This document shows positions 46,101 to 64,000 of a DNA stretch of 64,000 nt, piece by piece. Source of the stretch: Oscillospiraceae bacterium (GTDB taxonomy: Bacteria > Bacillota > Clostridia > Oscillospirales > CAG-382); contig SVTH01000001.1 of NCBI GenBank assembly GCA_015063885.1, forward strand, positions 91,182 to 155,181. The letters are read 5' to 3'. The position numbers and the translations under genes are program-made. The first letter of the stretch is position 1. The number at the start of each line of letters is the position of its first letter. Below the pieces are notes generated by a model. That model made no database searches. It was given only the letters and a program-made list of their open reading frames with translations, and had not been told where the DNA came from.

Positions 46101-49100
46101 ATAGACCGTTCTTAAATTTTGGCAATCCATAAACGCTTGAGTCTCAATCCGAGTCACGCTATCGGGGATCGTAATGCTGATCAACTTGTTTGATCCGGTA
46201 AACATATGTGCTGGAATTGTCGTGATTCCTTCGGGAAGAATCACATTTCCCGGAATCTCATCGGAAACGTAAACAATTCGCGTCAGCTCTTTGTCGTAAA
46301 GGATCCCGTCCTTCCAGACAAAAGCGTTGTTACTGCTTGACACTTCCAACTTAGTGCTTTGGGGGAACGCACTCTCTCCAATACTAGTTACCGTATCGGG
46401 AATCGTGATAGACTTTAGCTTGTAGCAATACATGAAAGCGCCGTAGTCAATTGCAGTTAAGCCTTCAGGCAAAGTGACAGTGCTCAAATTTTCGCATTGA
46501 CTGAATGCCCACGCTCCGATTGCAGTAACCCTATCGGGAATTGTAATTTCGGTCAGGCTACCGCAAAAACGGAACGCATACCCTTCGATCCGTTCAACAC
46601 TGCTCGGAAGCTCAATGTGTTTCAAACTGCTGCAGCCGCTAAAAGCTTCGATAGGAATTGTTGTTATGCCATACGGAATGTTGATGCTTGTTAAACTACT
46701 GCACCCCAAAAATGCATGATCGTAAATAACAGATAGGTTGTTGGGAAGCGCGATGTTTAGCAAACTACTGCAGTTTCTAAAAGCCGCCCCGCTAATTTGG
46801 GTTAAGCTGTCCGGAAGGGAGACGCTTGTCAAATGAATGCAATTCGAAAATGCATTAGAACCAATCCGCGTAACTCCTTCCGGGATTACGATGCTTCTTA
46901 ACTTTACGTTCTCGGAAAAAGCAGAATCGGGAATCTGTGTTATTCCGTTCGGCAAACTCAAATTTTCCGGAATCTTGTCGCTGACAAATATGATTTTTTT
47001 AAAGTCTGCGTCATATAGGATACCGTCAAGCATCCGATACGCTGTATTTGAGCCGACAAAAGCCACATCCGTGTTTTTTGAAAACGCATTTTCGCCAATG
47101 TCGCAAACGCTTTCCGGAATGTCAATCTTTGCTAATTTGGGACACTGCACAAAGGCACGCGTTTCTATTGTAGAAACAGTATTCGGAAGAGAGACCGATC
47201 CCAAATTATCGCAACCTTCGAACACACCACAGCTTATTTGCTGCACTCCTTCAGGGATTTCTATCTCCGACAAGCTTGAGCAATTGGCAAAAGCATAGAC
47301 TTCGATGGTTTTCACTCGTTCGGACATTTTAATGGATTTGAGGTTAGAGCACTGACTAAACGCCATCACGCCTATTTCAGTTACACTATTCGGTAGAGTC
47401 ACACTTTTAATAGATTTGTTTTCATAAAAAGCATATTCATCGATACGGACTCTCCCTTCGGGAATGACCACATTTACGCCGCCGATAAAACGATCTATTT
47501 TGTAGGGGTTACCGTTTATATCTTTGGGTAAAGCAATCGTTTCCGATAAACCTTTATATGCGCACAGTGTATAGGTGTTATCCGAATCTTTCGTGAACAA
47601 GAATTGGTCGCTTGTTTCTATGTATTCGATTCCTGTATCCACATAGTTCTTATTTCCATCTCTATCAACGATCAAATTTGCGTTTACAGCAATCCCACCG
47701 TAAGAATCGCTTCCCAGCTGCAGATCAAGTGTGCTATAATTATAGATAGTTCGAAGATCACTGAACTCGAACGCATATGATTCGATGTTTTTCAGATTGG
47801 CGCCCAATGTGATCATGCTTAGGCCGCTCCAAGAGAAGGCCTTTTCTTCAATCGTGATAACGTTATCCGGTATGACGATATTCTGTAATTTATAACAACC
47901 ATCGAACGCTTCTGCACCGATGTAGGTTACTCCTTCAGGAATTTCGACTATCGCTAAGTTATGACACAGACGGAAGGTTCCTTTTTCAATTGATGTGAGG
48001 CCTTTCGGGAGGGATACCTTATACAAATTTGAGCAACCTCCAAATACTCCATAGTCCATAGTTGTAACACTATCGGGGATCTCAAGTGTCTCAAAGCCCG
48101 AGCCGGCAAAGGCGCACAATTCTAAGGTAGTTAAACTATTCGGAAGGATCAGCTCCGTGATATTATGAACATTTTCAAATGCATAATACCCGATAGATGT
48201 TGTTTCTTTCGAAAGCTCCAATCTTCCTTGTATGCCGGAACCAAAGTGCCCTTTGTAAGGTTTTACCACTACTTTCTTTTGGAAAGTATCATACCAATAT
48301 GCCGTGATCACATTCGTCAACTCATATTTCGCCGTCGTCTCCGCAAAAGCATTTTCGTGTAATACACTTACAGAATGGGGCATGTTGATGGTTTCCAAGC
48401 CGAGACAGTAAGCAAACCCACCGGTATAAACCGCGGTAATCCCCTCCGTAATGGTCACGGTTTTCAAGCTTTCCGGCACGTAAGTCTCGTTCGCTTCATA
48501 CGCTCCCGCACCAAAGATATAACCAAACCAAGAGATCTCCTCGTCCTCGTAAGAGGCGCCGATAAAGGGCAGGGTGACCTCGGTGAGCTTGTTGCAATCC
48601 TCAAAAGCGCCGATGCCGATGATCAGCTCCTTCTTGTTGGTGTCCGGGATGGTCAGCTTGGTGATGTCCGTGCCCAGGAAGGCGTACGCCCCGATATCGA
48701 TGAGCGTCTCGGGAGCGGTAAACTCCCCGCCGATGGAGGTATACGCAAAGGCATAGTCATAGATCCCCTTGACGGCGTTGCTTTCGCCCAGGGGCAGGGA
48801 AGTGATCTTAGCGCACCCGTAGAAGGCGAAATCCGAGATCTCCACGATGGCATCGGGAATCACGATGTTCTCCAGATTGATATCCCCGCAGAAAGCGCCC
48901 TCGTAGATACCCTTCAGACAGTTGCCCTTTGCAAAATTCACGGTGTGCAGCTTTTCGCAGTAAGCGAATGCGTAGTAGTCAATAGACACCACGCTGGCAG
49001 GGACGTGGATCACGGTCAGATTCTTCGCCCGGAAGAAAGCACGGTAGCCAAAGGTCAGAATGTTGGCATTAGGATCAAACAATACCTCCTCCAGCGCCGT

Positions 49101-50804: not shown

Positions 50805-53706
50805 CGTGGTGACGGCAGGCTGAAGAACGTATTCCGTCTCCGTCCGTCCTGCGGGATAGGTGTATCATCCTATCGGAAAGATCGTATACAACGCCGTCAA
50901 GATCGTGGTAAACGGTATTGCCCTCCTCCACGTGAACTGCCGTCAGCAGTGGGCAGAAAGCAAATGCACCGTTCCCCAGCACGGAAACGCTTGCGGGAAC
51001 CGTCACTTCTCTCAACGCCGTTTCTGCGAAGGCAAGCTTCCCCACAGACTCCAGCCGCCCGGGAAGGCGGATCTCTTCAAGAATAGCGCAGCCCCTAAAG
51101 GCGGATCCCCCGATCACCCGAAGACTGCTGTTTTCACCGAAGGATACCTTCGCCAAAGGGTTCCCGATGAAGGCTTCCGTTCCGATCTCTGCGACGGAAT
51201 CGGGGAACTCGATCTCTCTGAGGGAACAGGTAGCAAAGGCGTTTTGGTCGATGAGAGACAGCGTGCTGTTTTCCGCAAATGCGATCTTTTCCAGTCCGCT
51301 TTGCGCAAACGCCCCGGACCCGATATAGCCGATTCCCGCGGGAATGGTGATCTCTCGGAGCGATGAACAGGAATTGAAGCAGTAAGACGCCACATCCGTC
51401 AGTCCGTTCCCCAAGGTCACGGACCCAAGATCGCGGTTGGCGGCAAACGCACCCTTGCCCAGGGAGGCAACGTTGTCGGGAATCACCAGCTCCTGCAGAA
51501 GAGCGCCTTCAAAGCCGTAGCTTCCGATGGCTTCCACACTGCCGAGCTCCACGTTCGTCAGCCGTGCAAAGGCAAAGGCATAGTCGGCGATGGTTTTGGT
51601 ATTTTCATGCACCGTGTAGCTGTTGCCGTGTGCGGCGGGATAGGCCGCCAACACGCTTTGCGTGGTGTTGTAAAGTACGCCGCCGTCGGAAACGAACAGA
51701 GCGTTCCCTGTCTGCACCTTGATCTCGTAAAGGGAAAGATCCCCGTAGAAGGCAGTTGCGTTGATTCCTTCCAGCGAGGCGGGAAGCTCAATGCTTCTCA
51801 AGCTTCCGCAATGGCTGAAGGCAAAAATCCCCACCGTCTTCAGCTTGCTCTGCCCCGTAAACGCCACGGTGGAAAGACGGATGTTTTCCGTAAAGGCAAA
51901 TTCGCCGATGGTGACGACGTTCTCGGGGATATAAATGCTCAGCAAATTGGAGCATCCCTCAAAAGCATAACGCTTGATGGTCGTCAGTCCGGCAGGCAGG
52001 CCTACCTCGCGGAGACGGGTCTGTCCCGCAAAGGCAAATTCGCCGATAGAAGACACAACCTTCCCATTGATCTTCTCGGGGATGGTAATGTATCTCCGTC
52101 TGCCGGTGTAGGAACGGATCTCGATGGTGCCGTCCTCCAGCTCCACGTAGGTAAAGGGCACGCCGTCCTCCTCGTTGGCCCACTTGGCGTACAAGGTAAT
52201 ATCGTCGTAAAATGGATCTTCGTAGTATACGTATTCCTGGGTAAAGGTATCGTCGTAATACCATCCGTCAAAAACGGTGTAAAGTCTCTCCGGCTCGGGG
52301 AGCTGCTGCAGGGTGTGTCCCCGGATAAACAACGCTTCCTCGTTTTCCAGCTCATCGGTGAGCATTTCAAAGGTCACCGTGTTCCGCTCCTCCAGCAAAA
52401 GGGCGTGGAGATCAAGGGCGCCGAAGCCGTAGGTCCAGTCTTCACCCGGATCTCCCAGGTCCCGGCAGGAGGCATACAGCACCTCCGTCACGTCCTTGAC
52501 TGTGGTATAGGGGGTGTTCTGCATCAGCAAAGCCAGCCCGCCCGCCACCACAGGGGAGGCCAGAGAGGTGCCGTTCATATTGCCGTAAGCTCCGTGGATC
52601 AAAGCCGTGTAGGTGGTACCGGGAGCAACCAGATCCAGGTTGTCCCCATAGTTGGAGTAGGGCGCAAGCTCCCAGCCGTCTGCTTCCAAAGCGCCGACGC
52701 CAATGACGTTGGGGTCTGCCGCAGGCCAGCAAAGGGAAGTGGTGCCGTCGTTCCCCGCCGCCGCCACGCAGACGATATCGCTGTCAACGGCAAGCTGTGC
52801 TGCCTCCGCAAAGGGATTTACGGGAGAATACGTACCGAAGGACATATTCACCACCTGAACGTCCCGCTCGATGACGTAGTAAAGGCCGAACACCAGATCG
52901 GAGGTGCGATAGAAGGTGCCGTTTGCATCGCACTCCGCCTTGATCACCAGGATCTCCGCATAAGGGGCAATACCCACCACGTTCCCGCTGTTCATGGACG
53001 CGGCAATAACGCCCGCCACGGCGGTACCGTGTCCGACTTCATCTTCTACCAAGGACCAGTCGTAATTCCCGTTTTCATCCGCCCAATCCTTGACGATTTT
53101 ATCCTCGGTGGCGTTGTAGGAATACTCGCTGATCCTTCCCGCAAATTCGGGATGGTCCGTATCAATACCCGTGTCGATCACGGCAACCGTTACGCCTGCA
53201 CCGTTGCAGCTGCTCCAGACGTCCTGCATGTTCAGGTAGTCCAGATAAGTCTGCAGCTCGTAGTCGGTATCGCTCACCGTATATTGCGGACGGGTAGGCA
53301 ACCGTTCATCAGAGTCCCCCGCGCCGTCTGCGTCGCTGATACGAACCTGATAGTCCACAGCCATCTTTTCCAGATGCTCCAGATTCTCCTCGTCCGCATA
53401 CACGTCCCGAATGGTGACCCCCTCGGGTAACGTCAGCGTGGCAAACCGCCCGTCTTCCGTAATGCGGAGCTTGGCGCCGAAAAGATCCGCCAGCTCCTCC
53501 GCATTCGCCTTGGACGTCTGATTCAGCACGATGCTCTGCTCGTCGTACGTGCCGATATTCCGCTCCAATTCCTCCAAAGCGGAATTGCGCAGCTCCTCCA
53601 GCTCCGAACGGCGTACCGACTGCTTCAGCAGGACCGCCGCCAAAGCAGAAGTCGCCAGCACCAGCACCAGAATGACCGCCAAAACGATTCTTCCTTTGCG
53701 TGTCAT
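50728..53706 (-). CDS. 5' segment of the same gene: signal-anchored subtilisin-like S8 serine protease, InlB-B repeat and BspA-type LRRs
   Basis: 992-aa ORF. MTRKGRIVLAVILVLVLATSALA, VAVIDTGIDTDHPEF (Asp), GHGTAVAGVIAA (His), NGTSLASPVVAG (Ser), VFDGWYYDDTF, then LRRs. The last ~43 aa (SRRTDGDGIRSS...) look like out-of-frame read-through. Confidence 0.8.
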   Translation of the reverse strand: MTRKGRIVLAVILVLVLATSALAAVLLKQSVRRSELEELRNSALEELERNIGTYDEQSIVLNQTSKANAEELADLFGAKLRITEDGRFATLTLPEGVTIRDVYADEENLEHLEKMAVDYQVRISDADGAGDSDERLPTRPQYTVSDTDYELQTYLDYLNMQDVWSSCNGAGVTVAVIDTGIDTDHPEFAGRISEYSYNATEDKIVKDWADENGNYDWSLVEDEVGHGTAVAGVIAASMNSGNVVGIAPYAEILVIKAECDANGTFYRTSDLVFGLYYVIERDVQVVNMSFGTYSPVNPFAEAAQLAVDSDIVCVAAAGNDGTTSLCWPAADPNVIGVGALEADGWELAPYSNYGDNLDLVAPGTTYTALIHGAYGNMNGTSLASPVVAGGLALLMQNTPYTTVKDVTEVLYASCRDLGDPGEDWTYGFGALDLHALLLEERNTVTFEMLTDELENEEALFIRGHTLQQLPEPERLYTVFDGWYYDDTFTQEYVYYEDPFYDDITLYAKWANEEDGVPFTYVELEDGTIEIRSYTGRRRYITIPEKINGKVVSSIGEFAFAGQTRLREVGLPAGLTTIKRYAFEGCSNLLSIYIPENVVTIGEFAFTENIRLSTVAFTGQSKLKTVGIFAFSHCGSLRSIELPASLEGINATAFYGDLSLYEIKVQTGNALFVSDGGVLYNTTQSVLAAYPAAHGNSYTVHENTKTIADYAFAFARLTNVELGSVEAIGSYGFEGALLQELVIPDNVASLGKGAFAANRDLGSVTLGNGLTDVASYCFNSCSSLREITIPAGIGYIGSGAFAQSGLEKIAFAENSTLSLIDQNAFATCSLREIEFPDSVAEIGTEAFIGNPLAKVSFGENSSLRVIGGSAFRGCAILEEIRLPGRLESVGKLAFAETALREVTVPASVSVLGNGAFAFCPLLTAVHVEEGNTVYHDLDGVVYDLSDRMIHLSRRTDGDGIRSSACRHHGGGVRLCGYEEPGHRRSSRRVDLVG

Positions 53707-53743
53707 AGAAAACCTCCCGATGACATTTCATTTCTTCCTAATT

Positions 53744-53772
53744 ATTTTATCACCTTGTTCACAAAATGTCAA
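53744..53772 (-). promoter_or_regulatory. Sigma-A promoter of the S8-LRR giant gene
   Basis: Minus strand: TTGACA (53772-53767), 17 nt, TGaTAAAAT. GGGAGG RBS before ATG 53706. Confidence 0.6.
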
Positions 53773-53892
53773 CATTTTCCACAACTCGTATAACGAAAAA
53801 GAATACCGCCCTACCATATATCTTCCTCCGACGGAATTCCCGTCCAAAACACGATTGTACCCTCTTTTCGCACAAATGCCCCCGTAAATCCC

Positions 53893-53921
53893 TTGACGAA
53901 ACTCCACTTTCGTGCTATACT
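53893..53921 (+). promoter_or_regulatory. Sigma-A promoter of the aminotransferase/transferase operon
   Basis: TTGACG (53893-53898), 17 nt, TGcTATACT (53913-53921). Confidence 0.6.
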
Positions 53922-53969
53922 GTCTCCGTAAAAATAGGGGCGGTATGCTCTTGATATAGAAGAGGTTTC

Positions 53970-55169
53970 ATGCGGATGGAACTCAAACCCTTTGAACGAA
54001 AAATATGGCTCTCCTCGCCCACTATGCACGGGGAAGAGCTTACCTATATGCAACAGGCGTACGACACCAACTGGATGTCCACCCTGGGGGAAAATATCAA
54101 CGAGATCGAGCGCATCGCTTGCGAAAAGGTCGGTTGCCAATATGCCGTAGCCCTTTCTTGCGGCACTGCGGCACTCCATATGGCGGTGAAGCTGGCAGGC
54201 GTCAAGCCGGGCGACAACGTTTTTTGTACCGACATGACCTTCGGCGCCACTGTAAATCCCGTGGTGTACGAGCGCGGCAACCCCATTTTTATTGATACGG
54301 AATACGATACCTGGAATATGGATCCCGTGGCACTGGAGAAGGCCTTTGCCCTTTATCCCGATACCAAGGTGGTCATTGCCGTCAATCTGTACGGTACCCC
54401 CGCTAAGCTGGACGAACTCTGCGCTATTTGCAGTAAGCATGGTGCGGTCCTGATCGAAGACGCCGCAGAATCCCTGGGCGCCACTTACAAAGGCCGCCAG
54501 ACAGGCTCCTTCGGTACTTATAACGCCATTTCCTTTAACGGCAATAAGATCATTACCGGTTCCTCCGGCGGGATGCTGTTGACCGACGATCCCGCTGCGG
54601 CACAGAAGGTGCGGAAATGGTCTACCCAAAGCCGGGAGAACGCTCCCTGGTATCAGCACGAGGAGCTGGGCTATAACTACCGTATGAGCAACGTGATCGC
54701 AGGGGTGGTCCGCGGGCAGTTCCCCCATTTGGAAGAACATATTGCCAAAAAGAAGGAGATCTACTTCCGTTACAAGGAAGGCTTTGAAGGTCTCCCCGTA
54801 TCCATGAATCCTTACGACGAGACCGCTTCGGAGCCGAACTTCTGGCTTTCTTGCCTGCTCATTGAAGAAAACGCCATGTGCAAGCAGACCAGAACAGCTA
54901 CCGAGGCAAGTTACGTGAGCGAAGCAGGGAAGTCCTGCCCCACACAGATCTTGGAGACCCTGGCAAGCTGTCATGCGGAAGGGCGCCCTATCTGGAAGCC
55001 CATGCACCTCCAGCCCATCTACAGCGGCAGACCCTTTGTTTCCGTAACCCCCGGCGCAGACGTGGGTGCAGATATCTTCGCCCGAGGCCTGTGCCTCCCC
55101 AGCGATATCAAGATGACGGCAAAAGAGCAGGAACAGATCATCGCTATCGTCAGATCCTGCTTTGACTGA
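53970..55169 (+). CDS. DegT/DnrJ/EryC1/StrS-family sugar aminotransferase (PglE-like)
   Basis: 399 aa. LSSPTMHGEE, ALSCGTAALH, IEDAAESLGA, AISFNGNKIITGSSGGML (PLP Lys), YNYRMSN. Confidence 0.9.
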   Translation: MRMELKPFERKIWLSSPTMHGEELTYMQQAYDTNWMSTLGENINEIERIACEKVGCQYAVALSCGTAALHMAVKLAGVKPGDNVFCTDMTFGATVNPVVYERGNPIFIDTEYDTWNMDPVALEKAFALYPDTKVVIAVNLYGTPAKLDELCAICSKHGAVLIEDAAESLGATYKGRQTGSFGTYNAISFNGNKIITGSSGGMLLTDDPAAAQKVRKWSTQSRENAPWYQHEELGYNYRMSNVIAGVVRGQFPHLEEHIAKKKEIYFRYKEGFEGLPVSMNPYDETASEPNFWLSCLLIEENAMCKQTRTATEASYVSEAGKSCPTQILETLASCHAEGRPIWKPMHLQPIYSGRPFVSVTPGADVGADIFARGLCLPSDIKMTAKEQEQIIAIVRSCFD

Positions 55170-55851
55170 CGGGGGAGTGATGCATATGTACGCAAAGTGT
55201 TTCAAGCGCATCATCGACTTTACCCTGTCTCTCATCGCCCTTGCTATTCTCCTGCCGGTTCTGCTGCTTTTGGCTATCATCGGCGCCATTGCTATGAAGG
55301 GCAACCCCTTCTTCGTTCAGCCCCGCCCGGGGAAAAAGGACAAAAACGGCAAGGAGAAGATCTTCAAGCTCATCAAGTTCCGTACCATGTCCAACCAAAA
55401 GGACAAAAACGGCAACCTCCTCCCCGACGATGCTCGCCTGAATAAATACGGCAAATTCCTGCGTTCCACCTCCCTGGACGAGCTCCCCGAGCTGCTGAAC
55501 ATCCTCAAAGGCGACATGGCCATCGTCGGCCCGAGGCCTTTGTTGGTCAGTTATTTGCCTTATTATACTGAAGAAGAGCGTAAAAGACATGATGTTCGTC
55601 CGGGTCTTACTGGATTGGCACAAGTTAGTGGAAGAAATACGGTTTCATGGGAAAAGAGATTTGAGCTGGATGTGGAATATCGTGACAATATAACTTTTAT
55701 GAATGATGTAAAAATAATCATCAACACCGTAAAAGCCGTTCTTTCTCACGATAGCATAGAATTGAATGCGTTGGAGAATTTTGATGAATATAGAAAAAAA
55801 CAAGCAGATAATGCCGACACTGATGCAGTCGTTGGGACGATTCAAAAATAA
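55162..55851 (+). CDS. Initiating undecaprenyl-phosphate sugar phosphotransferase (PglC/WbaP C-terminal type)
   Basis: 229 aa. KRIIDFTLSLIALAILLPVLLL, KFRTM, SLDELPELLNILKGDMAIVGPRPLL, RPGLTGLAQV. The start could be 55180 or 55186. GC content drops sharply at about 55545 inside the gene. Confidence 0.9.
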   Translation: MTDGGVMHMYAKCFKRIIDFTLSLIALAILLPVLLLLAIIGAIAMKGNPFFVQPRPGKKDKNGKEKIFKLIKFRTMSNQKDKNGNLLPDDARLNKYGKFLRSTSLDELPELLNILKGDMAIVGPRPLLVSYLPYYTEEERKRHDVRPGLTGLAQVSGRNTVSWEKRFELDVEYRDNITFMNDVKIIINTVKAVLSHDSIELNALENFDEYRKKQADNADTDAVVGTIQK

Positions 55852-56725
55852 TAATCTGTATATTAAGCGAGATGATTTGTTACCATTTTCTTTTGGTGGA
55901 AACAAAGCAAGAAAGGCAATGTATTTTCTTGATGATATAAAAAGAACGAACTCTGATTGCATTATTACATATGGCAGTAACAGTAGTAATCATTGTCGAA
56001 TCATTGCTAATCTGGCGGCGTCGCTGAGAGTAAAATGTATAATCATTTCGCCTGAAGAAGATGATGGGTCTACATTTAATTTGCAGATGTTGAATTATTT
56101 TGGGGTGGATATAATCCGTTGCGCCATATCGAATGTCTCAAAAACAATAGAAGATACAGTTGTTGCGATGAAATGTCAAGGATATACTCCATATTTTATT
56201 ATGGGGGGAGGACATGGTAATTTAGGCACTCAAGCTTATGTTGATTGCTTCTCTGAAATTATGAATTATGAAAGCGACCATAACATTCAATTTGATTGCA
56301 TTTTTCACGCTTCGGGTACAGGGACAACGCAGGCGGGCCTTGTATGCGGGAAGCTATTGAATAACCATAATACAAAAATTATCGGAGTGAGCATTGCCAG
56401 AAGGAATCCCAAAGGCAAGCAGATCGTGTTAGATAGTGTAAATGAATATATGACCTCGGTAGGCTTTACGGATGATTATGCTGGACAAGTTGAACTGATA
56501 GACGATTATGTTCTTGATGGTTACGGGAAATATAACACAGAAATAGATCAAACAATCCAAAATGTCCTAACGGACTATGGTATCCCCTTAAACAGAACAT
56601 ATACAGGAAAGGCATTCTGGGGGATGGAAAAGTATTTAGAGAAAGAAAGCATTGAAAACAAGAATATTCTGTTTGTTCATACAGGAGGAACACCTTTGTT
56701 CTTCGATTATTTGAGGCGGATGTAG
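55784..56725 (+). CDS. PLP-dependent enzyme of the ACC deaminase / D-cysteine desulfhydrase family
   Basis: LYIKRDDLLPFSFGGNKARKAMYFLDD (Lys for PLP), HASGTGTTQAG, HTGGTP. The start is uncertain (55766/55784/55814/55826). Low GC. Confidence 0.7.
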   Translation: MNIEKNKQIMPTLMQSLGRFKNNNLYIKRDDLLPFSFGGNKARKAMYFLDDIKRTNSDCIITYGSNSSNHCRIIANLAASLRVKCIIISPEEDDGSTFNLQMLNYFGVDIIRCAISNVSKTIEDTVVAMKCQGYTPYFIMGGGHGNLGTQAYVDCFSEIMNYESDHNIQFDCIFHASGTGTTQAGLVCGKLLNNHNTKIIGVSIARRNPKGKQIVLDSVNEYMTSVGFTDDYAGQVELIDDYVLDGYGKYNTEIDQTIQNVLTDYGIPLNRTYTGKAFWGMEKYLEKESIENKNILFVHTGGTPLFFDYLRRM

Positions 56726-56727
56726 AG

Positions 56728-57690
56728 ATGAATATTTTATTATTAAGTGTCGGAACTCGCAATAAGATAGTTCAATATTTTAAGAAAACCGTTGGTGTTA
56801 CTGGCAATGTAATCGCCACCGATATGAGTGAACTTGCATCGGCTGTATATGAAGCGGATAAGTTTTACAAAGTCCCTCGAATGACCGATGATGGTTATAT
56901 TGATGTTGTTTTTGATATTTGTAAGAAAGAGAATATCGGAAGTGTGTTGACTTTAATTGATCCAGAGCTTTCGCTGCTTGCAAAGCACAAAGACAAATTT
57001 GCAGAACTCGGAGTAAAAGTTATTGGTTCTTCATACGAACTATGTGAACGAGCGCTTGACAAAATGGAAATGTACAATTGGCTTACAATTCATGGGTATA
57101 ACTGTGCAAAGAGCTATATAAACAAAGAAAAGTTCTATGCGGACGTAGATGCTGGAATCATTACATATCCGGTATTTGTAAAGCCTGTTCGAGGAAGTGC
57201 AAGTATTGCCATTTCCAAGGTTTACGATAAAGAAACAGTTGAGTTGCTTTTTGCACATAATGATAACTTGATGATTCAAGAATTTCTTGACGGACAGGAA
57301 ATCGGTGCCGATGTATATATTGATATGCTCAGTAGAGAAACTGTGTCGATCTTTACCAAAAAGAAAATTGTAATGCGTGCTGGCGAAACAGATAAAGCTG
57401 TCTCTTTCAAGGATGAAAAATTATTTGCACTAATTGAAAAATTCGCAAATGAAAGCGGTTGGTTGGGACAAATTGACATTGATATTTTTGAGGTCAATGA
57501 AGAGTACTACATATCTGAAGTGAATCCTCGATTTGGCGGTGGCTATCCTCATGCGCATGAGTGCGGATGCGATCATGTTGCCATGATATTGAAAAATCTT
57601 TGCGGAATTGCTAACGAAAAAAAGATAGGCTCATACGATAGTGATGTGTACATGATGAAATACAACGAGTTAATGTTGAAAAAGGCATAG
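56728..57690 (+). CDS. ATP-grasp family ligase
   Basis: 320 aa. Pre-ATP-grasp N-terminus (ILLLSVGTRNKIV), YPVFVKPVRGSASI, MIQEFLDGQEIGADVY, EVNPRFGGGYP. Confidence 0.8.
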   Translation: MNILLLSVGTRNKIVQYFKKTVGVTGNVIATDMSELASAVYEADKFYKVPRMTDDGYIDVVFDICKKENIGSVLTLIDPELSLLAKHKDKFAELGVKVIGSSYELCERALDKMEMYNWLTIHGYNCAKSYINKEKFYADVDAGIITYPVFVKPVRGSASIAISKVYDKETVELLFAHNDNLMIQEFLDGQEIGADVYIDMLSRETVSIFTKKKIVMRAGETDKAVSFKDEKLFALIEKFANESGWLGQIDIDIFEVNEEYYISEVNPRFGGGYPHAHECGCDHVAMILKNLCGIANEKKIGSYDSDVYMMKYNELMLKKA

Positions 57691-57694
57691 AAAA

Positions 57695-58045
57695 ATGAAC
57701 ATTGTGTTTCTTACCATTGGTTCATTCAACAGTATTGAAGACCACTCCATATATACCGATCTGCTGAGAACCTTTCGAAACAATGGGCATGACATATACG
57801 TTGTGTGCGCAAATGAAAAGCGCGAGGGAAAACCTACCGAGTTTCTACACGAAAGTGGAATCCACCTTCTTCGTGTAAAGAGCGGAACGGTTAGTATTGG
57901 TGAAAACACATGGATTGGCGCAGGAGCAACAGTCGTTAATAACGTGGACATTTGCCCCGATTGTTTGATCGGTGCAGGGGCTGTGGTTGTCAAGACCATA
58001 CGTGAACCCGGTAAATATATAGGAGTTCCTGCGAGAATTAAATAA
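57695..58045 (+). pseudogene. Chimeric remnant: GT4 N-terminal fragment fused to the C-terminal hexapeptide-repeat acetyltransferase fragment
   Basis: 116 aa. Residues 1-62, MNIVFLTIGSFNSIEDHSIYTDLLRTF..GHDIYVVCA...GIHLLRVK, resemble a GT-B N-terminus. Residues 63-116, SIGENTWIGAGATVVNNVDICPDCLIGAGAVVVKTI.EPGKYIGVPARI, resemble a left-handed beta-helix tail. Too short for either fold. Confidence 0.5.
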
Positions 58046-58064
58046 CGAGGTTTGAGGAGTAACT

Positions 58065-58913
58065 ATGTCCCTTACGCTCATGTACATCACGAACAACCCT
58101 CAGGTTGCCGCTATTGCACAAAAAGCGGGCGTAGACCGTATTTGGGTTGATATGGAATATATTGGAAAAGAAGACCGCCAAAAAGGTATGAATACCGTCA
58201 AGTCGTTCCATACCGTCGAAGACGTTCGTGCATTACGCTCTATCGTAACCTGCTCGCAACTGATGGTGCGTGTCAATCCTTGGCATTGTGCGACGGATGA
58301 ATACGGTTCCTCTGAGGAGGAAATTGATGCTGTAATTGATGCCGGCGCTGATGTGATCATGCTTCCGTATTTCAAAACGAAAGCAGAGGTTACGAATTTT
58401 ATTCGTTGCGTCAACGGTAGAGCCACTGCTATGATTTTGGTGGAAACTGCGGAAGCTGTGTCAAGCATTGATGAGATCCTTTCAGTCCCGGGGATCGATG
58501 AGGTGCATATTGGTCTCAATGATCTTCATCTTGCATATGGGATGAAGTTCATGTTTGAATTGCTGGCGGATGGCACCGTTGAAAAGCTGTGCAAAAAAAT
58601 CGCCGCTAAAGGTCTTAAATACGGCTTTGGCGGAATCGCCAGAGTCGGATACGGAATGCTTCCGGCGGAGTATATCATGGGGGAGCATTATCGCTTGGGC
58701 TCAACGCGTGCTATTTTATCTCGCGGTTTTTGTGATGCAAATATTGTTGCCGATCCTTCTACGATTGAAAACATCTTTATTGAAGGCGTAGAGAATATTC
58801 GAAAGAAAGAAAAGGAACTCGAGCATCTCTCTTTGGAACAGTTTGCCGAGAATCGCTGGATCGTAGCTCAAAAAGTCCGGGAAATAGTAAAAAGCAAGGA
58901 ATCTCTTGGATGA
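58065..58913 (+). CDS. HpcH/HpaI aldolase / citrate-lyase-beta-like family protein
   Basis: 282 aa. GVDRIWVDMEY, MVRVN, AGADVIMLPYFKTKAEV, ILVETAEAVSSIDEILSVPGIDEVHIGLNDL. Confidence 0.6.
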   Translation: MSLTLMYITNNPQVAAIAQKAGVDRIWVDMEYIGKEDRQKGMNTVKSFHTVEDVRALRSIVTCSQLMVRVNPWHCATDEYGSSEEEIDAVIDAGADVIMLPYFKTKAEVTNFIRCVNGRATAMILVETAEAVSSIDEILSVPGIDEVHIGLNDLHLAYGMKFMFELLADGTVEKLCKKIAAKGLKYGFGGIARVGYGMLPAEYIMGEHYRLGSTRAILSRGFCDANIVADPSTIENIFIEGVENIRKKEKELEHLSLEQFAENRWIVAQKVREIVKSKESLG

Positions 58914-60067
58914 AAAAAATTTGTATGATCACGACCGTTTCCGGAACGTTGGAATCTTTCGTGGTCGAAATTGCCAAACATTTATACCATACTTGTGGGT
59001 ATGACATAACCTTGATATGTAATCATGACGAGGCCTTTGCGAATCAGTTGCCGAAGTATCTCCATTATATTCCCGTGAAAATGGAGCGGGGTATCAATTT
59101 ATCCGGATTCGCTTCGATCAAGGAGTTTCGCCGCATCTTTCGAAGAGAGAAATTCGATCTTGTTCAGTATGCGACACCCAACGCATCCTGCTATGCAAGT
59201 ATAGCAGCTAAACTTGAGCGGATTCCCATTAGGCTTTACTGTCAATGGGGGATACGATATGTTGGCTTGCACGGGCTAACAAGAAAGATCTTTAAGCGGA
59301 TCGAGAAAACGGTTTGCAAGCTCTCAACGCACATTCATTGCGCAAGTCACGGGAATATGCAATTCGCGGTGCGAGAAAAATTATACCCTGCTACGAAAGC
59401 GAGCGTTGTTGGAAACGGCGGTACGATTGGCGTAGATCTGGAAGAATATAATATCGCAGAAAAGGCTGCGTGGCGAACAGAAATCAGATCCAAGTATAAC
59501 CTAACAGATTCCGATTTCGTGTTTGGCTTTGCAGGCAGAATCTCTGTTGATAAGGGTTGCAATGAACTTATTGCGGCGTTTCGCATCGCTTCTCAAGATG
59601 TACCTTCCGCCAAGTTATTGATAGTTGGTCCGTTTGAGGATAATTGCGGCTTGCAAGACGAATTGCTGAGTTTCGCTAAAGCTTCCGAGCAAATAATTTT
59701 TACCGGCCGAGTTGCAAAAGGCGACATGTGCAAGTTTTATGCTGCAATGGACGTTCTTGTCCATCCTACCTATCGAGAAGGGTTTGGTATGGTAATTCAG
59801 GAAGCGGGTGCACTTGCAGTTCCGGTTATCACGACTAAAATACCGGGTGCTTCTGAAGTTATGGAAGACGGCGTGTCTTGTATGCTCGTTGAACCGAAGA
59901 ACATCGACGATTTGTTGCGTGCTATGAAAGAAGTATATTCCTGCCCGCAAAAAGTTTGCTTTTTGGGTGAAAATGCTCGTCTGAGAACGGAAGCTTTATA
60001 TGAACGTTCTGCAATGCTTGAGCAGCAAAGAAAGGAATATGTCAAACTATTGTCGTTGAAGCAATAG
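58910..60067 (+). CDS. Glycosyltransferase family 4 (GT-B)
   Basis: 385 aa. C-terminal EGFGMVIQEAGALAVPVITTKIPGASEVMEDGVSCMLVEP (E-x7-E-type motif). Confidence 0.85.
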   Translation: MKKICMITTVSGTLESFVVEIAKHLYHTCGYDITLICNHDEAFANQLPKYLHYIPVKMERGINLSGFASIKEFRRIFRREKFDLVQYATPNASCYASIAAKLERIPIRLYCQWGIRYVGLHGLTRKIFKRIEKTVCKLSTHIHCASHGNMQFAVREKLYPATKASVVGNGGTIGVDLEEYNIAEKAAWRTEIRSKYNLTDSDFVFGFAGRISVDKGCNELIAAFRIASQDVPSAKLLIVGPFEDNCGLQDELLSFAKASEQIIFTGRVAKGDMCKFYAAMDVLVHPTYREGFGMVIQEAGALAVPVITTKIPGASEVMEDGVSCMLVEPKNIDDLLRAMKEVYSCPQKVCFLGENARLRTEALYERSAMLEQQRKEYVKLLSLKQ

Positions 60068-60088
60068 AGTTGAAACGGTTAAGTCGGT

Positions 60089-61354
60089 ATGCCATCTCCT
60101 AAGATTCTAGTAATTACAGTTGCTTCGTGGAATTCAAAAGTTGGTTCCAACACGTGGACTTCTTTGCTAAGATGCTATTCCGCAGAAAATATTGCCAACC
60201 TCTGTATTCGTGACGAAATTCCCGATAGCCCTGTTTGTTCTCGTTATTTTTCCATTTCCGAAAACAAAATAATTAAAAGCGTTCTTCGTCGTTCTTTGAA
60301 AACGGGAAGAGAGCTTTCTACAAACATGTCCATAGAATCGACTCGCGATTTGATGGAACATAACGCCCGCTACAACCAAATGCGAAAAAAGCGGCGTTAT
60401 TCTATGCTTTTAGCGCGAGAATTTATTTGGAAAGTTGGCAAATGGCACACGAAAGAGCTGGATGACTTTCTCGATGATTTTAAACCGGATATTATTCTGC
60501 ATTCCATGGAAGGATATATCCATTTGAATCGGATCACAATGTATGCCATTCGTCGAACCGGAGCAAAAGTGATCGGTTATATTTGGGATGATAACTTTAC
60601 GTATAAGCAGTCCAAAAAGATAGGATACAAATTTTACCGTTTTTTTCAGAGACGTTCCTTGAAAAAGCTGGCTAAAAACACGTCGGATTTTTTTGCCATT
60701 TCGCCTTACACCAAGAAAGAAGCGGATGCATTTTTTGGAATTGATTGTAAAATACTTACGAAGCCGCTTAGCAGAATTCCCCGGGAATATGAATTCCGAG
60801 TCAGGAATCCTTTGAGAATTCTTTACACCGGAAATCTGTTAATAGGACGCGACAGAAGCTTGGTTCGTTTTGTTAATGCCCTAAAGAAAATGCCTGCCGA
60901 TTTTGCCGTTGTAGACGTTTATACGCAAACGAATCTTTCTGACGAGATTATGTGCGCCCTTGATCCTGCTCTATGTACGGTGCACGAGCCGATTCCGCAA
61001 AGCGAGGTTCTTAAAAAACAAGAGGAAGCAGATATCCTGTTGTTCCTGGAAGATATCGATGGTCCGGATGCTTTGGTCGCAAGGCTCTCTTTCTCTACCA
61101 AAATCACAGACTATCTATCTGCGGGCAAACCGATTTTTGCAATTGGAAACCAAGATACCTCACCAATGCATTACTTAGCAACCAATCATGCAGCAGTCAT
61201 CGCTTGCTCCGATGAGGAGATCTTACAGCGATTGAAAGAAATTCATGGTCGACCTTCATTACTGCGGGATATTGTTAGCTGTGCAAATAATGCTGCAGTA
61301 ATGAATCATGATCCTGCATTGATAAAAAAAGTCTTTGAAACCGTTGTTTTTTGA
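60089..61354 (+). CDS. Polysaccharide-locus protein of unknown function (possibly GT-B-like)
   Basis: 421 aa, low GC, no TM helices. KILVITVASWNSKVGSNTW at the N-terminus. No motif I can assign. Confidence 0.5.
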   Translation: MPSPKILVITVASWNSKVGSNTWTSLLRCYSAENIANLCIRDEIPDSPVCSRYFSISENKIIKSVLRRSLKTGRELSTNMSIESTRDLMEHNARYNQMRKKRRYSMLLAREFIWKVGKWHTKELDDFLDDFKPDIILHSMEGYIHLNRITMYAIRRTGAKVIGYIWDDNFTYKQSKKIGYKFYRFFQRRSLKKLAKNTSDFFAISPYTKKEADAFFGIDCKILTKPLSRIPREYEFRVRNPLRILYTGNLLIGRDRSLVRFVNALKKMPADFAVVDVYTQTNLSDEIMCALDPALCTVHEPIPQSEVLKKQEEADILLFLEDIDGPDALVARLSFSTKITDYLSAGKPIFAIGNQDTSPMHYLATNHAAVIACSDEEILQRLKEIHGRPSLLRDIVSCANNAAVMNHDPALIKKVFETVVF

Positions 61355-61392
61355 ATCGCTGAGCTCATTTTCTGTTATCCTGGGAGTATAAA

Positions 61393-62457
61393 ATGACACC
61401 GTATTTATTATTGGCAATATCACCAATAGTATTATCCTTTGGGATGGATTACTTAGTTGCGAAAAAAAGATTTTCCGAAAGAAAGGCAAAAAAAACATTG
61501 TTGCTTTTTTCTGGAATCCTGATATTCCTCTTCTTCGCTTTGCGTGATCCTTCCATTGGTAGCGGCGACACTTTAGTATACACCAGTGTTATGAAACGTG
61601 CGATACAATCCGAAAACTGGAGTCAATTCTACGGCTTTTATGATATGGAAATTGGATTCCAGTTCTTCGTTTTTTTGTTGTCTCGTGTTTTTACTTCTCC
61701 ACAAATGCTTCTTGTTGTTACGGCAGCATTCTTTGCGTATAGCGTTTGTTATTTTATTTACCGCAATTCCGACGATATGGCTTTGAGTCTTGTGCTGTTT
61801 ATTACGATTTGTGGCATGACATTTTATATGCAAGGCATGCGGCAGGCAATTGCAATGAGTATAGGATTATTTGCATACGAATGCGTAAAGAATCGAAAAA
61901 TCATATGCTTTGCTTTATTGGTGGTGTTGGCAACGTTTTTTCACCAAACCGCAGTAGTTCTGTTCCTCTTGTATGCAATTCGCTTTTTGAAGTTTAATTA
62001 TAAATCATTTGCTTTTTCTGCTGTTGCGGTAGTCATATTCCTTTTAAGCATCGAGCGGTTGATAGCAATTGCCAATGAATTATTTGAGAAAGAATATACC
62101 GGCGTCTTCGAGAGTGGTGGATATATAGCGACTGCGATTCATTTCCTTATTCTGATTTTTGCAGTTGTCTTCAACCGACGCGTACGAAAGAATGACAGCG
62201 AAACAATGCTTATTTATGTAGCATTGGCCGGATTGGTGATTTATATTGCGCGATATTTTGGCGTCGGTATAGCAGAACGAATCAGCTTTTATTTCATTTT
62301 TGGGCAGATCGCATTGTTACCGAATACCCTCCAGCATTTTGAACAGCGCGAACGAGTTGCGTTAAAGATGATTGTATACACGCTCGCAATTGCATTATCA
62401 GCATACCGTCTCCACGGTAGTAACTTGATTCCCTACATTCCTTTTTGGGAAGGATGA
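61393..62457 (+). CDS. EpsG-family / Wzy-like polysaccharide polymerase
   Basis: 354 aa, about 10 TM helices, aromatic-rich. The D..Y...F pattern and size are typical of EpsG. Confidence 0.7.
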   Translation: MTPYLLLAISPIVLSFGMDYLVAKKRFSERKAKKTLLLFSGILIFLFFALRDPSIGSGDTLVYTSVMKRAIQSENWSQFYGFYDMEIGFQFFVFLLSRVFTSPQMLLVVTAAFFAYSVCYFIYRNSDDMALSLVLFITICGMTFYMQGMRQAIAMSIGLFAYECVKNRKIICFALLVVLATFFHQTAVVLFLLYAIRFLKFNYKSFAFSAVAVVIFLLSIERLIAIANELFEKEYTGVFESGGYIATAIHFLILIFAVVFNRRVRKNDSETMLIYVALAGLVIYIARYFGVGIAERISFYFIFGQIALLPNTLQHFEQRERVALKMIVYTLAIALSAYRLHGSNLIPYIPFWEG

Positions 62458-63650
62458 TTAACTTGAAAATAGTACAAATCAATGCCACTTGTGGTGCAGG
62501 AAGTACCGGGAAAATATGCGTTTCCGTCAGCGACTTGTTGACCGCCCAAGGGGTAGAAAATTATATTTTGTACGCCTCCGGCCATAGCGATCATCCGCAA
62601 GGCATTTGCTATACGAACAAATACGAGATCAAATGGAATGCCTTGAAATCCCGCGTTTTTGGCAACTATGGGTTTAACTCCAAAGGCATGACCAAACGTC
62701 TCATCAAAGAACTGGATCGTATTTCTCCCGAGATCGTTCACCTTCATAACCTCCATGGGCACAATTGCCACTTGGAAATGTTGCTTCGCTATCTGCGTGA
62801 ACACCATATCAAAGTATACTGGACCTTTCATGATTGTTGGGCGTTTACCGGGTATTGTCCGCACTTTGTGATGAATAAGTGCGATAAATGGAAAACCGGT
62901 TGCTTTGCCTGCCCGCAAGCGCGCTTCTTCAGTTGGTTTTTTGACAAAAGCAAAAAACTTCACAACCGTAAAAAACAACTGGCACAGGATCTTGATCTCA
63001 CCATCGTCACCCCCTCCCACTGGCTTGCGGAGCTGGTAGGGGAGTCCTTCCTGAAAGACTACCCCGTGAAGGTGATCCACAATGGAATCGACCTCACGGT
63101 GTTCAAGCCCACGGAGAGCGACTTCCGCAAAAAGCACGGTTGCGAGGGGAAGTTCGTCCTTCTCGGGGTGGCCTTCGGCTGGGGCGCCCGCAAGGGGTTG
63201 GACGTGTTTGTGGAGCTTGCCTCCCGTCTGGACGACCGCTTTCAAATCGTCCTGGTGGGCACGGACGACGCTGTTGACCGCAACCTTCCCGAAGGCATCA
63301 TCTCCATCCACCGCACCCAGAACCAGGCCGAGCTAGCGGAGATCTACACCGCTGCTGATCTGTTTGTCAATCCCACCCGCGAGGACACCTATCCCACGGT
63401 TAACATGGAGTCTCTGGCCTGCGGCACTCCCGTAGTCACCTTTCAGACCGGCGGCAGTCCCGAGTGTATCGACCCCGCCTGTGGTTCCGTCGTCCCCTGT
63501 GACGATATTGACGCTTTAGAGCAGGAGATCCTCCGCATCGCAGAAACGAAGCCCTACTCCCTGGACGCCTGCCTGAACAAGGCGAAAGAATTCGACATGA
63601 ACCAACGATTTGAGGAATACGTGAAACTCTACACCGAGGTTCAAAAATGA
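62454..63650 (+). CDS. Glycosyltransferase family 4 (GT-B)
   Basis: ATG 62454 after GGGAAGG (the track uses TTG 62445). IVQINATCGAGSTGKI, NPTREDTYPTVNMESLACGTPVVTFQTGGSPE. GC content rises at about 63000 inside the gene. Confidence 0.85.
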   Translation: MINLKIVQINATCGAGSTGKICVSVSDLLTAQGVENYILYASGHSDHPQGICYTNKYEIKWNALKSRVFGNYGFNSKGMTKRLIKELDRISPEIVHLHNLHGHNCHLEMLLRYLREHHIKVYWTFHDCWAFTGYCPHFVMNKCDKWKTGCFACPQARFFSWFFDKSKKLHNRKKQLAQDLDLTIVTPSHWLAELVGESFLKDYPVKVIHNGIDLTVFKPTESDFRKKHGCEGKFVLLGVAFGWGARKGLDVFVELASRLDDRFQIVLVGTDDAVDRNLPEGIISIHRTQNQAELAEIYTAADLFVNPTREDTYPTVNMESLACGTPVVTFQTGGSPECIDPACGSVVPCDDIDALEQEILRIAETKPYSLDACLNKAKEFDMNQRFEEYVKLYTEVQK

Positions 63651-64000
63651 CCGTCCTTTTCCTTTCCAATTACTTCAATCATCACCAAAAGCCCTTTTGT
63701 GACGCTATGTTCCGTCTTCTGGGTGAGTCATACCATTTTGTTGAGACGGAGCCCATGGATGACGAGCGGAAAAGCCTGGGGTGGGGTGGTATCACATATC
63801 CCTCTTACGTCATTAGCCCGGAGGAGGCCTTTACCCCCGAGACGCAGGCCATGATCGATTCTGCGGATGCGGTCATCATCGGCTCGGCTCCCAATTCCTT
63901 GGTGAAGAACCGCATTCGCAAGGGAAAACTGGTTTTCCGCTATTCGGAACGCCCTTTTAAGAAAGGCATGGAGTGGAAAAAATACCTTCCGCGGCTGGTT
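63647..64000 (+). CDS. 5' part of a further polysaccharide-locus gene running off the window
   Basis: ATGA overlap with the previous gene. 118 codons with no stop (MTVLFLSNYFNHHQKPFCDAMFRLLGESYHFVETEP...). Function not recognisable. Confidence 0.5.
   Translation, partial: MTVLFLSNYFNHHQKPFCDAMFRLLGESYHFVETEPMDDERKSLGWGGITYPSYVISPEEAFTPETQAMIDSADAVIIGSAPNSLVKNRIRKGKLVFRYSERPFKKGMEWKKYLPRLV

Follow-up and report, generated by a model that had tools for sequence, protein, structure and literature searches.

The low-GC tract in a surface-polysaccharide locus of an Oscillospiraceae bacterium (NCBI GenBank assembly GCA_015063885.1, contig SVTH01000001.1, positions 91,182 to 155,181) is, in our judgement, likely to be the variable part of that locus, built by repeated recombination that drew on four or more sources. 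The stretch analyzed here, 64,000 nucleotides (nt) in length, is referred to as the window, and positions are counted from its start. An original prediction, made from the letters of this stretch, had seen in the tract a single cassette of about 7.5 kb that was swapped in by homologous recombination, with one breakpoint at about 55,545, inside the gene of the initiating sugar transferase (BacT), and the other at about 63,000, inside a GT4-type glycosyltransferase gene (GT4b in the following). A single swap of this kind was not borne out by the comparison with related loci. Instead, a block resembling a donor-like locus ends at about 57,492, within the gene of an ATP-grasp ligase, and is followed by a recombination scar and then, from 57,983, by sequence that is 99.1% identical to a conspecific haplotype.

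Homologous loci are labelled L0xx (or L1xx) and proteins P0xxx. The loci compared comprise those of the same species (L011–L020, L107 and L108), donor-like loci (L021–L025 and L109), a locus from a related species with the gene order BacT-PglD-HpcH-GT4a-unk432 (L045), L048, and two loci of other organisms that are the source of the GT4b homologues (L031 and L034). L037 is 100% identical to the window where compared and reaches about 4 kb beyond the window end. In addition, L050–L105 stem from a genome scan, in which the DegT-BacT-(PALP)-ATP-grasp gene module, PALP being the gene for an enzyme dependent on pyridoxal phosphate (PLP), was counted in species-level genomes.

Within the species, we distinguish three haplotypes. 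They share a left flank of about 98% identity, which encodes a giant protein with S8 peptidase and LRR parts, the aminotransferase DegT and the N-terminal half of the transferase, and they differ to the right of either the transferase mid-point or the 3' end of PglD. H1 is the haplotype of the window, H2 (L107/L108) has the order BacT-PglD-HpcH, and H3 (L011–L020) the order BacT-PglD-GT406, where GT406 is our name for a further GT4 gene. The left flank of the window (48,471–55,540) is 98.4% identical to L107 at the nucleotide level, and DegT, which is 98% identical to its L011 counterpart in amino acid (aa) sequence and has backbone composition (a G+C content at third codon positions, GC3, of 0.68), anchors the locus on its conserved left side. 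To the right of this same flank, other strains of the species have different sets of genes; the original prediction had proposed to compare strains for such alternatives.

The compositional steps themselves are real. Outside the two low-GC blocks of the window, the background GC content in 300-bp windows is 0.552 ± 0.050; in a sliding window, it lies at 0.34–0.47 from about 55,550 to about 62,950, and maximum-likelihood change points were placed at 55,539–55,551 and 62,979–62,997. In BacT, GC3 falls from 0.78 to 0.28 at codon 121 (nt 55,549; log-likelihood ratio (LLR) 30.0, permutation p<=0.0005), directly 3' of the GPRPLL codons, and the codon style is visibly different from there; in GT4b, GC3 rises from 0.52 to 0.77 at codon 181 (LLR 13.4, permutation p<=0.001). 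The computed GC and GC3 profiles thus agree with the original prediction on several counts: they contain a step at both of its coordinates, the left one lies inside the transferase gene just after the GPRPL codons, and both genes that bear a step are open reading frames (ORFs). They depart from it in what happens further right, since GC does not return to the backbone level near 63,000, but only rises to a GC-rich island of 1.7 kb (62,990 to about 64,700; 0.49–0.61 between about 62,900 and 64,700 in L037) and is back at 0.37–0.43 from about 64,700 to at least 68,045 (L037, beyond the window end). The low-GC tract is also heterogeneous, with successive segments of 0.37, 0.415, 0.51, 0.455, 0.43, 0.39 and 0.44 GC. 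Elsewhere in the window, isolated 300-bp windows with a GC content below 0.42 occur at about 1,201, 22,051, 29,401, 32,701 and 53,701; one of them is located inside a 1,632-aa ORF (27,128–32,026) and one corresponds to the intergenic region upstream of DegT.

The left step is a genuine in-frame recombination junction within the conserved stretch that encodes GPRP. When the two halves of BacT were compared separately with 120 homologues, the N-terminal half was 98–99% identical to P0044 and P0043, the C-terminal halves of which reach just 56–57%, whereas the C-terminal half was 97% identical to P0003 and P0005, the N-terminal halves of which reach 78–83%. Likewise, the identity to the resident type of transferase gene is 93–100% up to about 55,540 and about 65% from there, and that to the donor-like L021 is 60–65% before this point and 93–100% after it. 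Among 231 informative sites, 120 of the 122 on the left are of the resident type and 108 of the 109 on the right are of the donor type, with the switch between 55,542 and 55,543 (Fisher p=5.8e-63). The junction falls into one of the two 30-nt windows that are most conserved between the parental types (80% identity) and is adjoined by an exact run of 9 nt (55,552–55,560). The suggestion that recombination had proceeded through conserved motif-coding sequence is therefore upheld for the left end, in the GPRP codons, but not for the right-hand step, which is not a junction of the same event. Judged by these alignments, the left step is the only GC step demonstrable as a recent junction. The N-terminal half of BacT also contains a perfect 19-nt direct repeat (AAAAGGACAAAAACGGCAA) at 55,334–55,352 and 55,397–55,415, which encodes KDKNGK twice and is found in resident and related transferase alleles as well.

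To the right of this junction follows what we call imported block 1, which is 96–100% identical to L021 per 100 nt and about 98% identical overall. The L021 locus has a GC content of 38% throughout its 14.8 kb, and L021–L025 have the order DegT-BacT-PALP-ATP-grasp, as in the window. A lower-GC donor, as originally proposed, is thus supported for 55,543–57,492, but not for the remainder of the 7.5 kb. The end of the block is sharp: the divergence between window and L021 is 2.0% before 57,492 and 28.6% after it (change point LLR 63), and L109, a second donor-like contig, diverges from the window at the same place. Accordingly, the first 254 aa of the ATP-grasp protein are 98% L021-like, whereas the last 66 aa have a best relative of at most 74% identity, and no closer donor for this 3' end was found in L021–L030, L050–L106 and L109. 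The final 200 bp or so of the gene come from an unsampled allele. The ATP-grasp gene has a GC deficit of about 19 points relative to its host here, against a mean of 3.6 points in other genomes, which agrees with block 1 having arrived recently.

The small gene that comes next, described as a remnant in the original prediction, can be identified as a recombination scar, in which the 5' end of a resident GT4 gene is fused to the 3' end of a gene for a PglD-like acetyltransferase. It is made of three pieces. The first (57,694–57,881) corresponds to the first 188 nt of GT406 and is 95.7% identical to positions 11,289–11,476 of L011; in aa sequence, it is 94% identical to haplotype H3 only, with the next best match at 58%. 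The second (57,882–57,982) is a diverged PglD-like segment, and the third (57,983–58,045) is a PglD 3' end identical to that of H2. The join at 57,881/57,882 connects nt 188 of GT406 to the last 155 nt of the PglD-like gene with a microhomology of at most 1–2 nt and is therefore illegitimate; its letters read GTAAAGAG on the GT406 side, continued by CGGAAC on the PglD side, and GTAAAGAGCGGAACGG marks the scar junction. Microhomologies reported for illegitimate joins are usually a few nucleotides longer. A further boundary follows at 57,983: compared with L108, the window has 17 mismatches in 57,882–57,982 (16.8%) and 8 in 57,983–58,829 (0.9%), with the change point at 57,983 (LLR 24.5). H2 and H3 diverge from each other at this same position, about 60 bp before the PglD stop codon. 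PglD, which is intact in H2 and H3, is present in the window as a 155-bp fragment only, and the exact scar ORF was seen solely in the context that it has in the window (at least 23 contigs).

The low-GC DNA that begins at 57,983 appears to be common to the window and to a conspecific strain whose transferase is unrecombined and whose PglD is intact, at an identity as high as that of the flank. The 99.1% identity of this part, the HpcH cassette, to L108 extends to the end of the L108 contig at 58,829; the divergence from conspecifics is 1.6–2.3% in the flank, compared with 0.9% to the right of 57,983. Over 57,882–61,151, the window is 85.6% identical to L045 of the related species, with 82.7% for the DegT/BacT flank, and the protein identities to L045 are 88% for HpcH, 85% for GT4a, 83% for unk421, 88% for DegT and 91% for the N-terminal half of BacT.

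The polymerase gene of the EpsG family, which follows the HpcH cassette, has a GC content of 0.39 and no close relative that we could find; its product is just 24–28% identical to the EpsG proteins of L031, L034 and L051. A metagenome scan with EpsG gave no match, and neither did an exact search with 26 nt taken from the left junction on its resident side, in a collection that evidently lacks these samples. For GT4b, the closest relatives are P0122 and P0123, encoded in L031 and L034; these are different loci in other organisms, and in both of them an EpsG gene is directly upstream. L034 is 88% identical to the window over 62,430–64,696, through the next glycosyltransferase (GT) gene, and L031 is 87% identical over 62,430–63,638, so that the similarity to both starts at 62,430, the boundary between the EpsG and GT4b genes. 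The GC3 change point is located at the same codon in all three genes (181 in the window, 177 in L031 and 178 in L034; permutation p<=0.001 each), and the identity to the two homologues steps up at this point from 74–88% to 90–98%. Because the step is shared at the same codon and low GC resumes further right, the position around 62,990 does not mark where the variable region ends, nor is it a private junction. We rather take the step, from its occurrence in these loci, to be inherited with the GT4b lineage, as one end of a GC-rich island that moves together with the gene pair. The breakpoint proposed at about 63,000 thus loses its standing as a swap junction, given the step in L031 and L034, the similarity from 62,430 and the low GC after about 64,700. 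A separate donor for the N-terminal half of GT4b was considered and rejected, since, among the 120 best homologues, the proteins that match this half best are also those that match the C-terminal half best. Close similarity to H3 resumes only at 64,037–64,685 (91%) and then stops again.

The step in BacT also has counterparts elsewhere. Resident transferase alleles show a significant drop in GC3 just after the PRP motif (aa 116–118): from 0.78 to 0.42 at codon 120 in L011, from 0.71 to 0.35 at codon 126 in L045, from 0.60 to 0.33 at codon 125 in L048, and at codon 147 in L107. No significant step was detected in the donor-like transferase of L021. Since the drop is present in unrecombined alleles, GC steps alone do not date the event, and the mid-gene boundary is recurrent or ancient, with the recent import having only deepened the step in BacT. 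Taken together, the GC steps in BacT and GT4b have the appearance of long-standing boundaries that separate conserved from exchangeable sequence and are common to other alleles and species.

In terms of gene content, the net change in H1 appears to be the exchange of PglD for a PLP enzyme and an ATP-grasp ligase. In small monotopic phosphoglycosyl transferases (PGTs), the DE dyad and the GLLLP loop are N-terminal to the PRP motif, and the aromatic box and the C-terminal lid are C-terminal to it (PMC10186338). Consequently, the crossover in BacT would have exchanged the sugar-pocket half of the transferase. By comparison of motifs, LDELP, GPRP, GNLLP, Y..Y after PRP, W...F and a C-terminal F occur in both parental types, with the diagnostic aromatic residues retained in each; a 13-residue insertion in the tail distinguishes the donor type. 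PglD and the ATP-grasp enzyme seem to stand in for each other in the tailoring of the 4-amino group: the 4-amino priming sugar that DegT makes is predicted to be N-acylated by the ATP-grasp ligase and no longer N-acetylated by PglD, and the PLP enzyme may supply the ligase with an amino-acid-type carboxylate.

The module is not confined to this species. DegT, BacT and ATP-grasp genes, with PALP in about half of the cases, were found together in gut Clostridia, in 57 species-level genomes and practically never with PglD. Its hosts, many of them from the ruminant gut, include Faecousia, Acutalibacteraceae, Lachnospiraceae, Ruminococcus, Butyrivibrio, Blautia and Christensenella; the ATP-grasp gene is often directly followed by a GT406-like GT4 gene, and its GC content (0.24–0.52) tracks that of the host. 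It is tempting, albeit doubtful at present, to regard DegT, the small PGT, the optional PLP enzyme and the ATP-grasp ligase as a widespread alternative to PglE-PglC-PglD that would make an N-aminoacyl priming sugar, and to suppose that small PGTs gain specificity by swapping their post-PRP halves together with tailoring genes. If this were true, the PRP codons would be a recurrent, selected point of domain swaps, which fits the drop in GC3 at this place in four independent alleles.

The order in which these parts came together can be envisaged in two ways. In the history that we favor, an H3-like ancestor would have swapped its BacT 3' half and PglD for a BacT 3' half with PALP and the ATP-grasp gene; a right crossover near the start of GT406 is plausible for this step because ATP-grasp genes are so often directly followed by a GT406-like gene. 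The HpcH cassette, carrying a stub of its own PglD, would then have entered with an illegitimate join on its left, between nt 188 of GT406 and the last 155 nt of this PglD, and with homology further right. H2, in turn, would stem from a crossover between an H3-like backbone and the HpcH cassette, about 60 bp before the PglD stop codon. This sequence of events is favored since it explains without coincidence both the GT406 stub, which is known from H3 only, and the matching positions of the window/H2 and H2/H3 boundaries. Alternatively, a single import of 2.44 kb (55,543–57,983) could have carried a pre-formed GT406::PglD scar into an H2-type recipient, by two homologous crossovers, one in BacT downstream of the PRP codons and one within the 3' end of PglD, replacing the BacT 3' half and most of PglD. 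H2 has exactly the structure expected of such a recipient, H2 matches the window at the level of the flank both before and after the segment, and both ends are located in genes that donor and recipient would share. Yet this course of events, which we consider unlikely, needs an unseen donor with a scar whose GT406 piece matches only H3 (94% versus 58% in aa sequence), as well as a right crossover that coincides by chance with the H2/H3 boundary in PglD, and no other context was found for the scar ORF. Several observations also weigh against our reading of the tract as a product of multiple events or limit its detail. Neither an intermediate with the recombined BacT, PALP, the ATP-grasp gene and an intact GT406 (in L021–L030, L050–L106 and L109) nor a true donor of the ATP-grasp 3' end was found. 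The sampled resident and donor alleles of the transferase gene are only 60–65% identical at the DNA level, with longest exact runs of 13, 11 and 9 nt, too little for an efficient RecA-type crossover of the classical kind if these very alleles were the parents; probably, the real parents were closer than the sampled alleles, or the join was mediated by microhomology. The H2 contigs end at 58,829, such that the 'resident' status of 58,830–62,430 is judged from L045, which covers it up to 61,151. Finally, across the 57 genomes, the type of the C-terminal transferase half has no clean link to ATP-grasp or PglD neighbors (38–81% identity to the window type and 36–64% to the resident type), which weakens the idea of a matched specificity half to a hypothesis, and the roles of the ATP-grasp and PLP enzymes are predicted from sequence, without a precedent that we could find in the literature; in particular, we found no report of an ATP-grasp enzyme acting with bacillosamine, PglD or Qui4N.

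More radical alternatives fare worse. The tract might not have been transferred at all, its low GC being intrinsic to polysaccharide genes and its steps reflecting the composition of genes and domains. Indeed, the variable regions of all related loci (L011, L045, L048, L031 and L034) are low in GC, other alleles have the GC3 steps of BacT and GT4b at the same codons, and the divergence of the HpcH cassette from L045 resembles that of the flank. However, L021 shares 98% identity with 55,543–57,492 but about 62% with the sequence immediately 5' of it, which in turn is 98% identical to conspecifics, and the scar and the alternative conspecific haplotypes would be left without explanation. As a general account, the absence of transfer is thus very unlikely; it is refuted for block 1 by the informative sites, but remains a partial truth for 57,983–62,990. 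A slightly lower probability still is assigned to the original single double crossover at 55,545 and 63,000. It has in its favor that both GC steps are real and inside open genes, that the left one is a genuine junction, and that genes of mobile elements are absent; against it, the nearest relatives vary along the tract, from L021 (98%) via an unsampled allele, H3 (95.7%), H2 (99.1%) and L045 (85.6%) to L034 (88%), a scar gene lies inside the tract, the GT4b step is common to homologues in other loci, and low GC continues past about 64,700. It is highly improbable that an insertion sequence (IS), an integrative element or a phage inserted the PLP and ATP-grasp genes. Although the block is compact, foreign and compositionally distinct, both of its ends are in frame within homologous genes, and there are no Pfam domains of integrases, transposases or recombinases, which bears out the original remark that transposases and integrases are absent. 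Around the junctions, there are no IS-like repeats, terminal inverted repeats or target duplications, just short chance repeats, and no RNA genes or tRNA-type elements were detected with Rfam. The least probable explanation, which we reject, is a chimeric contig, in which reads of a high-GC and a low-GC organism were mis-joined across conserved motifs. The sources are metagenome assemblies, and the junctions lie in conserved coding sequence, the likeliest place for such mis-joins; but the same junctions recur in independent assemblies. L001 is 100% identical to the window across 18.8 kb, independent JGI and ENA assemblies are 99.99–100% identical, junctions included, and the chimeric transferase (P0002) and the scar ORF are found in identical form on at least 15 and at least 23 contigs, respectively. 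These come from many samples and three pipelines (JGI, ENA megahit and an NCBI metagenome-assembled genome with a 278-kb contig), and their context is constant. We thus retain the reading of the tract as the product of several recombination events.

Features of the locus in the window, with positions, strand and supporting details
Feature	Position	Strand	Details
DegT/PglE-like sugar aminotransferase	53,970–55,169	+	PF01041 E=1.8e-82; NCBIfam LegC/PseC-like below cut-offs
BacT, small monotopic PGT, chimeric	55,186–55,851	+	PF02397 E=1e-57; 221 aa in public calls
Left crossover interval	55,534–55,551		GGC CCG AGG CCT TTG TTG (GPRPLL)
Imported block 1 (BacT 3' half, PLP enzyme, most of ATP-grasp)	55,543–57,492	+	GC 0.37
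PLP-dependent enzyme (PALP), D-cysteine desulfhydrase/ACC-deaminase family	55,766–56,725	+	PF00291 E=1e-32
PylC-like ATP-grasp ligase	56,728–57,690	+	PF21360, PF02655; NF009406 505 bits vs cut-off 271; PDB 2pn1 E=1e-84
Scar ORF, 116 aa, hexapeptide remnant	57,695–58,045	+	three pieces
HpcH cassette (HpcH/HpaI-like, GT4a, unk421)	57,983–61,354	+	GC 0.43–0.46
HpcH/HpaI-like gene (aldolase-like; P0241)	58,065–58,913	+	HpcH cassette
GT4a	58,910–60,067	+	HpcH cassette
unk421, 421 aa	60,089–61,354	+	no family above cut-off
EpsG-family (Wzy-like) polymerase	61,393–62,457	+	PF14897 E=1.4e-45
GT4b	62,454–63,650	+	right-hand GC step inside
Right-hand GC/GC3 step in GT4b, left edge of GC-rich island	62,979–62,997		shared with L031/L034
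Next GT, cut by window end	63,647 onward	+	shared module with GT4b, 62,430–64,000

Family profiles bear out the gene list of the original prediction, which comprised a PLP enzyme, an ATP-grasp ligase, a remnant, an aldolase-like gene, a GT4, a 421-aa protein and EpsG. The initiating transferase scores 211 bits with TIGR03025, below the full-length cut-off, because it is the small single-domain form. The start codon of PALP is uncertain, with 282–300 aa in public calls; its NCBIfam matches to CuyA and D-cysteine desulfhydrase are below the cut-offs, and it matches PDB 7ysk and 4d8t (E~1e-37). For unk421, there is no NCBIfam match and only a sub-threshold Glyco_transf_4 N-domain; it is a conserved neighbor of GT4a in L045 (83% aa identity), has distant relatives in L048 and L071 (34–35%), and may be an unclassified enzyme of GT-B-like type. 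Just past the window, on the contigs L037 and L038 (17,082–20,351, equivalent to window positions 64,776–68,045), the gene of a 773-aa protein, in which a polysaccharide pyruvyl transferase is fused to Fer4 and FrhB/FdhB C-terminal domains, is followed by a Wzx-type flippase gene (Polysacc_synt, PF01943; window-equivalent 67,106 onward), both with a GC3 of 0.36–0.40. With an initiating transferase, a polymerase and a flippase, the locus has the make-up of a Wzy-dependent surface-polysaccharide cluster. Its host is an uncultured ruminant-gut bacterium of the Oscillospiraceae/Ruminococcaceae, and NCBI assigns P0002 and P0241 to a metagenome-assembled genome of this group. No chain-length regulator or tyrosine kinase (Wzz, CpsCD) was seen within 53,970–68,045, the span inspected for it.

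The second low-GC block of the window (44,833–48,400, GC 0.39–0.47) is located to the left of the locus, inside the minus-strand ORF 43,182–50,804, where it forms the middle part (about aa 801–1990) of a 2,540-aa LRR_5 surface protein. L011 and L107 carry another allele of this core, which is also low in GC (40–44%) and 26–59% identical at the protein level, and at the DNA level they resemble the window only from 48,471 onward. The surface protein beside the polysaccharide locus thus seems to have a swapped variable core as well. At about 50,864 (minus strand), the window has a 2-bp deletion compared with L107 ('GT--ATC' versus 'GTGGATC'), in the overlap of the ORFs 50,728–53,706 and 43,182–50,804. 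It splits an S8-peptidase-LRR protein of 3,671 aa, which is whole in H2 and H3, into ORFs of 992 and 2,540 aa, and the split is found in all window-type contigs.

Surface polysaccharides govern the recognition of bacteria by phages, the immune system and other bacteria, but their diversification in gut commensal Clostridia is poorly documented. The locus described here offers a natural example, resolved to the base, of conspecific haplotypes that differ by a swapped sugar-tailoring module, with a priming transferase in which the crossover falls precisely where the catalytic core meets the sugar-pocket half. It also calls for caution with composition-based calls of horizontal transfer, as GC steps can be old shared boundaries and not footprints of the latest event. 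The ATP-grasp module, unstudied and present in at least 57 species-level genomes, is a candidate for new glycan chemistry.

Switching of polysaccharide loci, with low-GC centers, recombinations that end inside the locus and mosaic genes, is well documented (Croucher et al., 2015, PMC4380333; Mostowy et al., 2017, PMC5850285). The present locus resembles the pneumococcal cps locus and its serotype switching in its conserved flanks, alternative central gene sets, low-GC center, boundaries inside the locus and mosaic genes. It differs from it in that the left boundary lies inside the priming transferase and not in flanking housekeeping genes, and in its host, an uncultured gut Oscillospiraceae bacterium known from metagenomes alone, for which the comparison is one of sequences. 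The scar, in turn, is reminiscent of homology-facilitated illegitimate recombination, which combines one homologous with one illegitimate end (PMC3240628): it joins non-homologous genes with a microhomology of at most 1–2 nt, and homology is available on the other side. Unlike the described cases, it is deduced here from one natural junction, and the homologous anchor has not been located. With respect to sugar chemistry, H2 and H3 have an aminotransferase, a small PGT and a PglD_N/hexapeptide acetyltransferase in a row, much like the PglE-PglC-PglD module for N,N'-diacetylbacillosamine (Anderson et al., 2023, PMC10186338), and, by motif, the transferase is like PglC-type small PGTs (PMC10186338) in its DE dyad, GNLLP loop, PRP motif and aromatic residues at the position of the aromatic box. 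The window departs from this scheme, having a PLP enzyme and an ATP-grasp ligase in place of PglD, and a post-PRP transferase half of another lineage; no literature was found on an exchange of PglD for an ATP-grasp module. While mosaic loci of this kind are known as such, what is specific here is the host among the gut Oscillospiraceae, the base-level map, the boundary at the PRP site and the exchange of PglD for the ATP-grasp ligase.

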